A stretch of DNA of 64,000 bases from Octopus sinensis (taxonomy: Eukaryota), in NCBI RefSeq assembly GCF_006345805.1, contig NC_043002.1, forward strand, positions 76,322,001 through 76,386,000, read 5' to 3'. The notes under the pieces were generated by a model, which made no database searches, had not been told where the DNA came from, and was given only the letters and a program-made list of their open reading frames with translations. Numbering within the stretch: position 1 is the first letter of the stretch; every line of letters begins with the position of its first letter. The position numbers and the translations under genes are program-made. This document shows positions 15,028 to 60,752 of the stretch, piece by piece.

Positions 15028-15597
15028 ACAGTTCTATATTTCAGAGATGAGGAATTATGTACATTATTTACATTCTTTACATTCGACGGATATTTGTCCT
15101 TATCTTATTTGTTGTTAACACAACGTTTCGGCTGATATACCCTCCAGCCTTCTTTAGGTGTCTTGGGGAAATTTTAGGAATGAGAACCCAGGTTCGAAAT
15201 TTCCTCCAAGACACCTGAAGGAGGCTGGAGAGTATATCAGCTGAAACGTTGTGTTAACAACAAACAAGATGAGGATAAATATCTTAAATGTAAATAATGT
15301 AAATAATATACATAATTCCTCATCTCTGAAATATAGAACTGTATTATCTAATCGGTACGGATCTGACATTAGACTTCAATGGAGACGTATAGAGAAACTC
15401 CATCAAAAACTAGCTCGTCTTTGAAACCATCTAACTTTCTTATGTAGATGCAGAAAAAAATTAGGAATGAGAATCCAGGTTCGAAATTTCCCCAAGACAC
15501 CTGAAGAAGGCTGGAGGGTATATCAGCTGAAACGTTGTGTTAACAACGAACAAGATGAGGACAAATATTCGTCGAATGTAAATAATGTAAGTAATGT
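15028..15597 (+). mobile_element. Penelope-like element: inverted pLTR, pLTR, ORF N-terminus, second pLTR
   Basis: Inverted repeat 15028-15174 / 15197-15342; direct repeat 15175-15300 / 15461-15597; spacer encodes RIEKLHQKLARL*NHLTFLCRCR, resembling the PLE N-terminal motif. Confidence 0.85.
15497..15540 (+). ncRNA. Minimal hammerhead ribozyme (PLE type); sister copies 15211-15254 (+) and 15118-15161 (-)
   Basis: ACAC-CUGAAGA-A-GGCUG-loop-CAGCU-GAAA-C-GUU-GUGU: stem I, core, stem II, loopless stem III. Confidence 0.8.
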
Positions 15598-15636
15598 ATA
15601 CACACACACACACACACACACACACACATACACGCA

Positions 15637-15860
15637 CAAGAGGGGCGGGGGGCACAAAAGTTCCTGGCTTTGAGTAAAAGAAAAAGCAGGAGGGTCAGTT
15701 AATTAATTATTTTATTCAGCATATTCCCCTCAAATTCACACACGTATTGCAGCGGTCCTTCAGTTTTTTTAAGCCCTGTAAAATTATTCAGAAGACAGGG
15801 CCTCCAACCAGGTCTTTCGTGATACCCTTGAAGCAACAAACTTTTCAGCAACCTCTCGTC
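15637..15860 (-). mobile_element. Mariner-derived MITE (about 220 bp)
   Basis: Inverted homolog of 32368-32588; degenerate TIRs. Confidence 0.75.
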
Positions 15861-15861
15861 A

Positions 15862-16210
15862 CTACATACATACATGCATACATACATACATACATACATA
15901 CATACATACATACATACATACATACATACATGCATACATACATATATACATACATACTTACATACATACATACATACATACATACATACATACATACATA
16001 CATACTTACATACGTACATACATACATACATACATACATACATACATACATACATACATACATACCTACATACATACATACATACCTACATACATACATA
16101 CATACATACATACATACATACATACATACATACATACATACATACATACATACATACATACATACATACATACATACATACATACATATATACATACATA
16201 CATACATACA
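15862..16210. repeat. (TACA)n microsatellite
   Basis: Direct reading. Confidence 0.95.
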
Positions 16211-16539
16211 CACACGACGGGCTTCTTTCGACACGATTACCGTCAATCGCATTTCTTTCACAAAACATTGATGATGTTCGCGTAGAATACCTTTGCCAGA
16301 AGTGCAGCGCAGGTCGCATCGAAACCAGAACGACGAGCTTACGAAGCGAACCCCTTCCTTACCATACATCTATACGCACAGCTTCGCTTTAGTTTCCTAC
16401 TCTCTATTTCTAAATCCAAATGCAGCTTCACTGAAAATCGATATCGCTGTTGATTTTGTTTAAATAAAATGTACCAGTAATATACTGTTAGTTGCTGTTG
16501 TGTGGACGCCCCCAGACGATGAAGTAGGCTAGCCCAATA

Positions 16540-16934
16540 CATCTTCTTCTTAGCACTCCGTCGGTTGCGACGATGAGGGTCCCAGCTGATACGATCAACG
16601 GAACAGCTTGCTCGTGATATTAACGTGCAAGTGGCTGAGCACTCCACAGACACGTGTACCCTTAACATAGTTCTCGAGGAGAAACAGCGTGACACACAGA
16701 ATGTGACAAGGCTGGCCCTTTGAAATACAGGTACAAGAGAAACAGGAAGAAAGAGCGAGAGAAAGTTGTGGTGAAAGAGTACAGCAGGGTTCACCACCAC
16801 CCCCTGCCGGAGCATCGTGGAGCTTTAGGTGTTTTCTCTCAATAAACACTCACAATGCCCGGTCTGGGAATCGAAACCGCGATCCTCCGACCACGAGTCC
16901 GCTGCCCTAACCACTGGGCCATTGCGCCTCCACA
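16540..16934 (-). mobile_element. tRNA-derived SINE, family C
   Basis: Minus: GGAGGCGCAATGGCCCAGTGGTTAG (A box), GGTTTCGATTCC (B box), tail (AAG)n. Confidence 0.85.
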
Positions 16935-16939
16935 GCCCA

Positions 16940-17240
16940 ATACATAGATATGGAGGGAGAAGCCTAGACGTCAGTAGACTAGAACAGTAGTAGCGAACAG
17001 AGTAGAGTAGCAGTAGAGAGCCGAAGTTGAGTTGTAGAGGCATCCGAACGTGCGACATAACAGTGACGACGAGGATTTCGTAGCTCACACAGCCACTGTG
17101 TAGTATTGCGACATAACAGTTGCATAACTCAACGCTTTGAGAAATGTCTGTTGAGCCTAATGCACAGAAGTCAATATCAGCTGAGCTAGCAATGCTGATA
17201 ACACGAAACAATGAAAGACCCTCGGACGACATCACAGAAA
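16940..17240 (+). mobile_element. Possible Ty3/gypsy LTR end, primer-binding site and gag start
   Basis: ...cataaca|gtgacgacgaggat resembles the TGGCGACGAG-type PBS after an LTR CA end; short ORF MSVEPNAQKSISAELAMLIT follows. Confidence 0.3.
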
Positions 17241-17584
17241 TAACAGTTGAATGCCCTCAAATCACACGCTATCAATGTAAAAAAAAACGAAGAGTACTAA
17301 AGAGAACGTAGTCGTAGATATATAAAAATATACAGCACGGTTTTGCGTGTAAAGCCCGGTTATTATAGGACTAGAGGATCCAATCAATGATGACCAGGGG
17401 CTGGATGGTAACAACAACAACAACAATAACAAAAATATTTTATATAGTTTTTGCCTTCTTGACAGTAAGTAAATATAGCACTTTTATCGTCTCAATCATT
17501 TAGTTTGACATCTGCTATACCATTATTCTGACAGCATTATTAAATTAGCCACACTCCCACTCCGTCCACCATATCCATATTACT

Positions 17585-58160: not shown

Positions 58161-58220
58161 ATTATTATTATTATTATTATTATTATTATTATTATATTAA
58201 TATATATATATATATATATA

Positions 58221-58430
58221 AGGAAAACATAAGAATCACAGTCCTTCCAAGATTTTATTCACTCTAGATTGCCAGGCTTTTACAGTTCCGGGCTGGACAA
58301 GCTATCGCTGAAATGGCAAAAGTGTATTGACAATATAGGTGCATACTTTGATGAATAAAACTTTTCCTCGTACTTATAAAATATCAGGTAACTTTTTTCT
58401 TTTCTACAAATTTCATACTTGACGACCTAA
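58221..58430 (+). mobile_element. Mariner 3' end
   Basis: FYSSGLDKLSLKWQKCIDNIGAYFDE*, followed by TIR-like ttcatacttgacgacctaa-TA. Confidence 0.85.
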
Positions 58431-58671
58431 TATATAAATGAATAACAAAGATGTACAGGTATCAATTCATTACGGCCGTTTCAAGCATTTCAGCTGGGTT
58501 GTGTTGTCTGCACATACGACAGGAATATCAGGTGCATACACACCTGCACAGAGTTTTGATATTCAGTATTCGATTAATATTGATTGGGTGTGCGGATTAT
58601 ACCGACGTAACCAGGTGCCTCAATTTAAGTACCTAATTCAACAGAATCTTTATATATATATTCTTTTATTC

Positions 58672-59037
58672 TATCATTCTTTTACTTGTTTCCGTCATGT
58701 GACTGCGGCCATGCTGGAACAACGCCTTTAGTCGAACAAATCAAGTCCAGGACTTATTCTTAGTAAGCCTAGTACTTTTTCTATCGGTGTGTTCTGCCGA
58801 ACCGCTAAGTTACGGGGACGTAAATACACCAACATCGGTTGTCAATACACACACAGATACACACACACACGTATATATATATTTATACGATGGGCTTCTT
58901 TCAGTTTCCGTTTACTAAATCCATTCACTAGGCTTTGGTCCGCCCGTGGCTATAGTAGAAGACCCTTGCCCAAGGTGCCACATAGTGGGACTGAACTCAG
59001 AACCATGTGGTTCTTACCACACAGCCACGCCTCCGCC
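58672..59037 (-). mobile_element. SINE family A
   Basis: Similarity to other copies. Confidence 0.9.
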
Positions 59038-59165
59038 TGTCTCTGTCTGCCTGTCTCTCTCTCTCTCTTATATATATACATATATATATATATATATATA
59101 TATATATATATATATATATATATATATATATCTATATATATATATATATATATATATTTATACAT

Positions 59166-60003
59166 ATTAGAAGGATGACCACTATGTGGACAATCCTACT
59201 GCTAGAAGTAGATCCGCTATGGTCTTACCACTGAGAAAGGTTCTCTAGAAAATTTAGCAAACACTAGAACGTAATCGAGCACGACAAATGAAAAGTAACA
59301 AAAATATAGATTAATCATAAACAATGTTTCACTATCAACAGATTACGTAATTTTAATTATGCAATTTGTCCGTAGATCTTCAGTATGATCGTCATACAAA
59401 TATAATTTTCAGAACTACACACCAGACAATTACGTTCTGGTGTTTGCTAAAGTTTCTAAAGAACATTTCTTAGTGGTAAGACCATAGCGGATCTACTTCT
59501 AGCTCTAGGGTTGTCCACATAGTGGTCATCCCTCTAAATACAATTTACTGAACCTTCAGTTTTTAATATACTAGACCACTGGTGTTAAATTGATGTTATT
59601 AAACAAATATTCAATTTTTCATCCTCATTTTAATTTCAATTTTAAATTAATACGTTCTCAAACCGGCAAAAGCTACTGCAGTGAATTATTTCATGCAGTT
59701 TTATTTAGTGTAATTTAGTGCGCCAAAACGAGGACTTGTGAAAATTAACCACAAGTGTAATAGGTAGAACTACATACATGCCCGAGCTCGTACAGACGTT
59801 TGGTGTGTAGTTCTGCAAATTATATTTGTATGACGATCATACTGAAGATCTACGGACAAATTGCGTGAGTAAAATAACGTAATCTGTTGATAGTGAAACA
59901 ATGTTTATGAATTATCTTCAGTTTTTAATATGCTAGACCACTGGTGTTAAATTGATGTTATCAAATTAATATTCAATTTTCCACCCTCATTTTAATTTTA
60001 ATT
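59166..60003. mobile_element. Rearranged PLE remnant with two inverted pairs and one direct repeat
   Basis: 59166-59275 inverted at 59429-59538; 59312-59425 inverted at 59798-59912; 59553-59645 repeated at 59915-60003. Confidence 0.75.
59837..59910 (+). ncRNA. Hammerhead motif; inverted twin at 59315-59388 (-)
   Basis: UCAUA-CUGAAGA-long stem II region-GAAA-C-AAU-GUU-UAUGA. Confidence 0.7.
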
Positions 60004-60049
60004 ATATATATATATATATATATATAGTATATGTACATATATATGTGTA

Positions 60050-60252
60050 TGTGTCTCTATGTCTGTGTTTGCCCCTCCACCGGTTGACAATCGGTGTTGA
60101 TGTGTTTATGTCCACGTAAAGAGACTGCTAGAATAGGTATTAGGCTTAAAAATAAAACAAATTTTGGGGTCAATGTGTTCGAGAGAAAACCTTTAAGGAA
60201 GGCCCCAGCACGGTAACAGTAAAATGACTGAAACAAGTAAAAGAATAAAAGT
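60050..60252 (+). mobile_element. SINE family A 3' fragment
   Basis: gttgacaatcggtgttgatgtgttta...atgactgaaacaagtaaaaga. Confidence 0.75.
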
Positions 60253-60346
60253 ATATATTTACATACATACATATATATACATACATACATACATACATAC
60301 ATACATACATACATACATACATACACATATACATATATATATATGA

Positions 60347-60752
60347 AAGAATTTTTGCGTAATAAGATAAAAAGCCAAGGCTGTGTAGATATTAGAGCAT
60401 TTATAGATAGGTCTTACAGCTGTTTCTAGGATATTTATTAATTATATCCCTTCCTTGGAGACGGTGTGAGAGGATGGTTAAGTTATAATTAGTTTAGATG
60501 TGATACAAAATAGAGAGTGAGATGGAGGAAAGATCAATATCCATACATATCTTGCATCTATTTTCTTTCCTCCACCTCACTCTCTATTTTGTATCCCATC
60601 TAAATTAATTATTACTTAACCATCCTCTCACACCGTCTCCGATGAAGGGAGATAATTTTATAAATATTCTAGAAACAGCTGTAAGACCTATTTATAAATG
60701 CTCTAATATCTACACAGCCTTGTTTTTTTTATCTTATCACGCAAAAATTCTT
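60347..60752. mobile_element. Inverted PLE pLTR pair (arms of about 187 bp), each with a hammerhead motif; same family as 55707
   Basis: 60347-60532 is the reverse complement of 60564-60752; GUCU-CCGAUGA...GAAACAGCUGUA-AGAC at 60635-60687 (+); decayed twin at 60411-60462 (-). Confidence 0.85.

Follow-up and report, generated by a model that had tools for sequence, protein, structure and literature searches.

Hammerhead motifs in a 64-kb stretch of the Octopus sinensis genome very probably mark Penelope-like elements and non-coding tandem repeats, one family of which carries a tRNA-like head

A 64,000-nucleotide stretch of the Octopus sinensis genome (contig NC_043002.1, positions 76,322,001 to 76,386,000; hereafter the window) holds numerous hammerhead ribozyme motifs, raising the question of what carries them and whether they act on host RNA. 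An initial annotation had described them, between positions 15028 and 60752, as a dense cluster from at least five sequence families, linked them to Penelope-like elements (PLEs), and suggested that they might cut host pre-mRNA. We are confident that the motifs are type I hammerheads with a short stem III from seven dispersed repeat families (A to G), four of them 3' ends of PLEs and three of them non-coding units. This reading is based on the pieces of PLE open reading frames (ORFs) attached to the motifs, on insertions that are 5'-truncated, partly tandem or paired with an inverted partner, on target-site duplications, and on stem III segments that are self-complementary. The hammerhead repertoire itself is of a published kind. 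What is new is family A, a PLE with a transfer RNA (tRNA)-like head in its pseudo-long terminal repeat (pseudo-LTR), most of whose genomic copies start at that head and are likely a short interspersed element (SINE) mobilised by the PLE.

Motifs were located with a descriptor comprising CUGANGA, a stem II of at least three pairs, GAAAC..G, UH and stem I, which tolerated at the foot of stem II either one extra base after A9 or one mismatch. Six intact-core type I hammerheads were found in the window (C3 at +15501, +46580, +55711, +59842, -59383 and -24070), and none in any of 100 local dinucleotide shuffles. When up to two core mismatches were allowed there were 10 matches, against a shuffle mean of 0.62 and maximum of 3. 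The comparison with shuffled sequence that the initial annotation had proposed thus places motif frequency far above chance. An earlier, stricter descriptor, which required stem II to pair from its foot upwards with neither insertion nor mismatch, gave no match with stem II up to 40 nt and one with stem II up to 80 nt; most of the motifs therefore require an extra A or a mismatch at positions 10.1/11.1, and the strict form was discarded as too narrow. A core-like match at 42239 was rejected as single-copy and failing the stem test, which matches at 10515, 45567 and 6925 also failed. No hammerhead appeared among the 150 of 304 Rfam matches listed for the window, and none reached the gathering score in 15 family loci, so that the Rfam search, also proposed at the outset, gave no model match; the top-scoring rows were microRNA (miRNA) models on microsatellites and inverted repeats. 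A repeat search of the whole window was likewise dominated by microsatellites.

Ten sites had been named as sharing one pattern. This holds for five of them (15497, 46573, 55707, 59837 and 59315), which have an intact core and an NUH triplet. The other five are broken: 15211 by A9G, 15118 by G5A, 60635 by U4C, 60411 by U4C together with G5A, and 57846 by a GCA triplet in place of GUH, the majority triplet in family D being GUA (U16.1 is present in 26/29 copies). Since 15118, 59315 and 60411 are minus-strand inverted partners of adjacent copies, the ten sites represent six insertions. The count of at least five families stood, two more having been overlooked: family F, at 24070 on the minus strand, and the decayed family G, at 47965. 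Stem III loops were also as described, with CAUUG, self-complementary around a central mismatch, as the majority form in family E. The statement that stems I and II are complementary within families is correct for the majority pairs of all six families A-F. These stems differ wholly between families, including the related B and F, although the descriptor itself demands pairing.

Each family is dispersed over many contigs. A first look returned at least 2,924 candidates for A, 1,089 for B, 2,223 for C, 1,324 for D, 2,274 for E, 825 for F and 2,665 for G, figures that are lower bounds and not copy numbers; 40 were scored per family, and 29 copies per family, the window's own copy being left out of each count, were examined. 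Both the CUGANGA and GAAA boxes and an NUH triplet are intact in 25 copies of A, 18 of B, 22 of C, 14 of D, 23 of E and 23 of F. The G10.1-C11.1 pair is present in the majority sequences of A, D, F and G; elsewhere the majority has A-A (C), U-U (E) or G-U or U-U (B), the A-A of family C being fixed (28 and 27 of 29 copies) as is the U-U of family E (28 and 29 of 29). Substitutions relative to the family majority amount to 2.3% in the core and 4.2% in the flanks (P 8e-5, for copies that are non-independent and top hits), and polymorphic columns number 0/62 in the core, 2/11 at N7/H17 and 17/405 in the flanks, a core-flank contrast that is not significant. We regard this pattern as possible signs of past selection. 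Predicted stem III duplexes have energies near -11 kcal/mol in families B, C and F, against roughly -2 kcal/mol in A and E.

Family A, C, D and G motifs lie in what we identify, from the ORF pieces attached to them, as 3' ends or pseudo-LTRs of PLEs encoding a reverse transcriptase (RT) and a GIY-YIG endonuclease, which bears out the suspected Penelope link for these four. In the window family A comprises an inverted, 5'-truncated pseudo-LTR (15028..15174, minus strand, its core at 15157 broken by G5A), a direct pseudo-LTR with an optional tail (15174..15342, plus, A9G in its core at 15215), an N-terminal fragment of the PLE ORF that is itself broken (15343..15460, plus; longer copies match RT proteins of 700-900 residues) and a second direct pseudo-LTR (15461..15598, plus) with an intact hammerhead at 15496-15541. 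This hammerhead has an extra A after A9, G-U at 10.1/11.1 and a CG stem III, and would be cut after 15536. In longer copies a 391-residue ORF piece passes through the hammerhead; this frame has 112 protein matches (E<=1e-10) of about 700-1,300 residues, nearly all with RT-type domains, and one locus (L203) has a Pfam RT match. The element is putatively of Poseidon type, a label that draws on its motifs and on the list of protein matches. At locus L186 the endonuclease end, a short untranslated region (UTR), the tRNA-like head, an (AAT)n tract, the hammerhead and the ORF start follow one another in that order, and a search with this stretch returned many copies spanning ORF end and pseudo-LTR. 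Reads of family A show two 3' ends 26 nt apart. In several copies (window 15343-15460; L189, L200, L201) the ORF is cut short after about 120-125 nt and a fresh pseudo-LTR or head follows, which hints at a further preferred start site for reverse transcription.

The family C insertion (54880..55900, plus) is a long 3' UTR and pseudo-LTR of a GIY-YIG PLE, with an intact-core hammerhead at 55707-55754 that has the loop CAGCUG and A-A at the foot of stem II. A GIY-YIG-like ORF end lies about 1 kb upstream in 4/19 long copies. These ORF pieces cover the endonuclease part only and match the Pfam GIY-YIG model below its cut-off (E 0.005 and 0.0008); the Atlas cluster for the ORF is GIY-YIG (0.94, 33% of members). 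A relative of this family forms an inverted pair of pseudo-LTR pieces at 60355..60760, both cores broken (60458 minus, 60639 plus). Family D (56440..58152, plus) begins with the end of a PLE endonuclease ORF (about 56441-56600), its endonuclease-like C-terminus assigned at motif level, and continues through about 1.2 kb of AT-rich UTR to a hammerhead at 57846-57928, which in the window copy is broken by the GCA triplet and by U-C at 10.1/11.1. Family D had been considered as a non-coding element with a fixed 5' end, an idea that was rejected when the sharp start at 56440 proved to be another repeat interrupting the ORF; that repeat, at 55990-56437, is a dispersed, non-coding sequence of about 450 nt whose ends resemble a small DNA-transposon derivative. 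Family G (47066..48200, plus) combines a decayed PLE ORF C-terminus, recognised by a tblastn match to a PLE-like ORF piece, with a pseudo-LTR whose hammerhead-like core at 47965 has a damaged stem II in the window copy and a stem III segment self-complementary via G-U pairs. The 5' truncation, partial tandems, inverted copies and optional tail found in these families agree with the PLE insertion anatomy described in PMC8557442.

Most genomic copies of family A carry a 75-nt tRNA-like head and an (AAT)n tract upstream of the hammerhead; the window's own copies have no such head. From its position at L186, we assign the head to the autonomous element itself. Its best match among 15 genomic tRNAs is tRNA-Arg(UCU) (z 7.9), and it has A- and B-box-like motifs at tRNA spacing. 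Among copies picked by their hammerhead, 24/29 carry the head. The 5' end of 13 of these falls at -12..+8 relative to the head's first base; another 8 begin within the head, and 3 reach further upstream, one of the last extending only into an inversion junction. Among copies picked by the head, 26/30 start at it and 24/30 continue into the pseudo-LTR. Target-site duplications flank 13/20 copies against 8/380 mismatched pairs, a test that omits the 10/30 head loci with no mapped 3' end. No run of four T occurs in 12/15 full short copies (a count omitting 15/30), and in ORF-bearing copies the first such run lies at least 440 nt into the ORF. Copies of the hammerhead part are estimated at about 24,000 genome-wide (95% range 9,600-49,000). 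Because most copies begin at the head they likely derive from short transcripts of RNA polymerase III (Pol III), and we think it rather probable that the short copies are a SINE-like offshoot, for which the PLE protein would copy Pol III transcripts of the pseudo-LTR. The possibility of an independent SINE lying by chance before pseudo-LTRs was rejected, as 24/30 copies run on into the pseudo-LTR and 5/6 of the others have inverted family A pieces upstream, as judged by eye.

The alternative that survives best, though we hold it the less probable, is that the short copies are ordinary 5'-truncated PLE copies, the pile-up at the head reflecting a stop or fold-back of the RT at a hairpin or an RNase P-like trimming of a long transcript of RNA polymerase II. 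A 5-bp hairpin does straddle the head's first base, several inverted pairs are symmetric about it (L009, L016, L017, L020, L022, L321 and L326), and an inverted partner accompanies 25/29 hammerhead-picked and 16/30 head-picked copies. The symmetry suggests that the end of the complementary DNA folds back on itself to prime synthesis of the inverted copy, which may be one way in which PLE inversions arise. Yet the 14/30 copies with no inverted partner also start at the head. The box-like motifs and the absence of the four-T terminator from most full short copies also speak against this alternative, and copies are lost at about 0.5% per base inside the head compared with 14/16 in 20 bases at its start (P about 1e-12 if the copies were independent, which they are not).

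Several observations speak against the derivation from Pol III transcripts and against the PLE and ribozyme assignments more broadly. tRNA-Ala matches the head nearly as well as tRNA-Arg (z 7.6), ARAGORN calls no tRNA gene in 16 family A loci and Rfam does not call the head a tRNA; the head is too decayed for either program. The head query carried a few flank bases, favouring starts at -4, and 3/15 full short copies contain a four-T run. In three RNA sequencing (RNA-seq) runs, coded as an organism other than the best DNA match and mapped to one family A copy only, molecule starts do not accumulate at the head or the cut site, in a library type ill-suited to showing Pol III starts, and 86-88% of their family A reads run into unrelated flanks on both strands. 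No full-length intact PLE or ORF was present among the recovered copies. Monomer folding is weakly predicted, with a stem I probability below 0.2 in 7/11 isolated motifs, and stem I is essentially lost in folds with 450-nt flanks. Covariation among copies, which the initial annotation had put forward as a test, is nearly empty, with 8 two-sided stem changes in about 2,100 cells, as expected because the copies derive from few masters. All conservation counts are biased by the choice of top BLAST hits. Neither cleavage nor circles nor Pol III starts were observed.

Families B, E and F have a different structure, and we interpret them as non-coding, retrozyme-like tandem units of 472, 535 and 514 nt, respectively. 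The unit end joins the unit start, with terminal redundancy of 79-124 nt and seamless head-to-tail junctions; they reach about 2.5 units (L134, L143) and occur as truncated monomers, partial tandems and inversions. No shared ORF was found in the 29 copies of B, E or F. In the window, family B is represented by about one unit with terminal redundancy (46391..46868, plus), whose hammerhead (46573-46642, loop CCAUGG) has one stem I mismatch and, at the foot of stem II, a U-U that is a subfamily trait (12/29). A 100-N assembly gap (46292-46391) directly precedes this copy and obscures its 5' end. Family E forms an inverted and partial-tandem insertion (59160..60009, both strands) with intact-core hammerheads at 59313-59390 (minus) and 59837-59910 (plus), each with U-U at the foot of stem II, and family F is a truncated copy (23945..24175, minus) with an intact-core hammerhead at 23968-24074, also with the loop CCAUGG. 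B and F show a similarity of about 70% in two stretches; a MAFFT alignment left their cores out of register. These three families likely borrow a Penelope RT and endonuclease, although the autonomous partner was not identified, which counts against the assignment. A 20-35-nt motif near the unit end is common to the otherwise unrelated E and B/F (window near 46810, 59575 and 59935); a partner PLE shared by these families may recognise it.

Could B, E and F instead be long pseudo-LTRs of coding PLEs whose ORF-bearing copies escaped sampling? The sample comprised just 29 copies per family, families C and D had themselves seemed non-coding until about 1 kb further upstream was included, and one B copy (L034) directly follows a PLE endonuclease piece. 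We nevertheless consider this unlikely. The junction between unit end and unit start has an identical position in many copies, and the join in L034 breaks the ORF mid-domain while 0/39 other matches to that ORF piece continue into B, so that the placing of B as the UTR of a PLE at this locus was set aside as a one-off join.

To set the window against the rest of the 2.72-Gb assembly, the same descriptor was applied to 60 arbitrary 10-kb stretches (600 kb) and to 200 kb flanking the window, giving 13 and 5 matches, or 1.4-1.6 motifs per 64 kb (about 22 per Mb), and a genome-wide estimate of about 60,000 motifs (95% range 31,000-101,000). The window is thus about four times richer than background (Poisson P about 0.004 for six motifs, about 0.01 for five independent insertions), but as it was picked for its richness and its flanks are ordinary, to call it a dense cluster overstated the case. 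A descriptor making no demand on stem III found 18 matches in the 800 kb and 0-1 in eight shuffles. In the arbitrary DNA 12/15 stem III loops of at least 4 nt are self-complementary, a property the descriptor did not demand, which supports the earlier suggestion that these ribozymes act as dimers. When these are pooled with 10 matches from the flanks of family loci, 22/28 have a palindrome or CG; they represent 16 families, of which 11 were seen once and 4 twice (Chao1 about 30 families). The repertoire is therefore as large and diverse as had been proposed, with at least 16 families among 22 sampled matches, but not of an unexpected kind, thousands to 120,000 motifs per animal genome having been published (PMC4209133, PMC7229834). 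Further hammerhead families with other palindromes of up to 10 nt were seen at L245, L299, L246, L269, L274, L277, L295 and L296; L245 is an intact tandem pair with copies 497 nt apart, suited to a dimer test, and L299 an inverted pair within a 9-kb stretch.

If these motifs function as their published relatives suggest (PMC4209133, PMC6765202), the stem III segments of two sense copies in one transcript would pair and allow each core to fold; the paired cores would cut after NUH and release a unit-length RNA, which might form a circle and reach new sites by reverse transcription. Copies that stand alone, are mutated or have an antisense twin, as most in the window do, would be largely inert. 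In family A, short Pol III transcripts from the head would be copied by the family's own protein.

A functional cluster that cuts or regulates host pre-mRNA or a long non-coding RNA, by comparison, seems very improbable. It would accord with the roughly fourfold density, with the plus-strand motif in 4/5 intact-core insertions and with the presence of family A in RNA (5,425-7,585 reads per run, about 0.05% of reads, both strands alike). However, Pfam matches among 97 of 186 window ORFs were RT pieces only, in a test that short exons would escape, and 100 of 180 ORFs from the flanks gave one transposase and one weak match, with no host exon. Adjacent motifs come from different families whose palindromes do not match, half of the named sites are broken, and inverted twins are predicted to sequester the A and C2 motifs. 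Reads cross the family A cut site with no dip in depth (X21: 1406/1468, with 1390/1447 and 1555/1607 in the adjacent bins), and embedded copies are therefore mostly uncut in those libraries. Published minimal motifs, moreover, show no cleavage as monomers and low cleavage as dimers (PMC4209133). The proposal that these ribozymes cut host pre-mRNA thus found no backing, the window having no host exon among the ORFs tested, several motifs that are broken or antisense-paired, and no depth dip at the one cut site covered by reads. Chance matches in AT-rich, repeat-rich DNA, for which one could cite the single-copy match at 42239 and the silence of Rfam, are refuted for practical purposes by both shuffle comparisons, by palindromes that were not asked for and by the position of the motifs at PLE ends.

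The assignment to PLE ends and non-coding units can be set beside described systems. Animal PLEs carry large and diverse sets of minimal hammerheads in their pseudo-LTRs (Cervera and De la Pena 2014, PMC4209133; Lunse et al. 2017, via PMC6765202), and the window families share with these the type I form with a 4-5-bp stem I, an extra base after A9 (families A and G), a palindromic 15.2-16.2 or loop 3, and the occurrence of many divergent families, mostly as solo truncated copies or close opposite-strand pairs (PMC4209133). They differ in that stem II is often much longer, the two halves of the core lying 37-80 nt apart in B, D, E and F, and in the fixed A-A of C and U-U of E, which replace a G10.1-C11.1 pair called highly conserved (PMC4209133). 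An axolotl motif with U-U at this position cleaves as a dimer (PMC7229834); no report of A-A was found in the literature searched. The numbers, too, have precedents, with more than 6,000 motifs in 16 families in a coral and up to 120,000 in axolotl (PMC7229834).

Family A resembles Penelope/Poseidon PLEs such as PAc of Anolis (PMC11167929, PMC8557442) in its single ORF with RT and C-terminal endonuclease, a hammerhead overlapping the ORF start, two alternative 3' ends separated by an optional tail of about 26 nt, and the occurrence of partial tandems and inverted 5'-truncated copies. An Anolis protein is among its ORF matches (36%), which does not imply identity with PAc. It differs from PAc-type elements in having the tRNA-like head and (AAT)n inside the pseudo-LTR and a first in-frame ATG that precedes the entire core instead of lying at stem II (PMC11167929). 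For PAc, hammerhead mutants had no effect on insertion in vitro, and RNA-seq gave no reads ending at the cut site (PMC11167929). Families B, E and F, in turn, resemble animal non-LTR retrozymes (PMC7229834), recently argued to be PLE derivatives (bioRxiv 10.64898/2026.07.22.740005), in being non-coding and AT-rich with one type I hammerhead, in occurring as monomers to short tandems and in their PLE-like ends. Their units are longer, however (472-535 nt versus about 170-400), are mostly found as 1-1.3 units rather than arrays, and have minimal-type cores with a long stem II (PMC7229834).

The short form of family A also shares several features with tRNA-derived SINEs, namely a tRNA-like head, a length of about 270-330 nt, target-site duplications, a 3' end shared with an autonomous retroelement and tens of thousands of copies. 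Its partner, however, is a PLE and not a long interspersed element (LINE), the autonomous element itself contains the head, and the insertions carry PLE inversions and tails. Octopus SINEs named OK, OR1 and OR2 were reportedly described by Ohshima and Okada in 1994. OR1 and OR2 are described as CORE-SINEs (PMC4824008, PMC4758252); compared with them, by description only, family A has no central body between head and pseudo-LTR. The promoter-plus-hammerhead repeats Sm-alpha and Sj-alpha of Schistosoma are among the closest described parallels of the short form (PMC6765202). Passages from two cephalopod repeat papers (PMC13282606, PMC8967140) mention both Penelope elements and SINEs, but the word ribozyme does not occur in them. 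We found in the literature searched no description of hammerheads in octopus or of a PLE-mobilised tRNA SINE, although Repbase, Dfam or supplementary files may already list these families or name family A.

A bolder version of the family A reading, whose parts we judge jointly to have an even chance, is that a SINE was born inside Penelope: a PLE would have captured a tRNA-derived Pol III promoter in its pseudo-LTR, every 3'-end copy would then transcribe a short hammerhead RNA holding the internal start sites of the PLE protein, the short form would outnumber its parent about tenfold, and in C and E the naturally occurring hammerheads would be active with a mismatch fixed at the place of G10.1-C11.1. 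The hammerheads alone add one more animal genome to a known pattern. Were the family A reading true, SINE parasitism would extend from LINEs to the third class of eukaryotic retroelements, it would become apparent how a SINE can originate inside the element that mobilises it, and a natural substrate of 300 nt would be at hand for assays of PLE transposition. The estimated 30 or so families, each with its own palindrome, make family-specific dimer pairing through stem III testable, and with it the ribozyme's role in PLE and retrozyme replication.

The window also contains LINE-like RT remnants at 22259-23968 (minus), 195-1048 (plus), 6774-6980 (minus) and 14480-15027 (minus), the first adjoining the family F copy and the last adjoining family A. 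A segment at 45000-45800, with no Pfam match, is presumably a remnant of a Tc1/mariner-like transposase, to go by its motif. Finally, a near-perfect 55-bp inverted repeat at 21718-21849 accounts for the top Rfam row, a false miRNA match.

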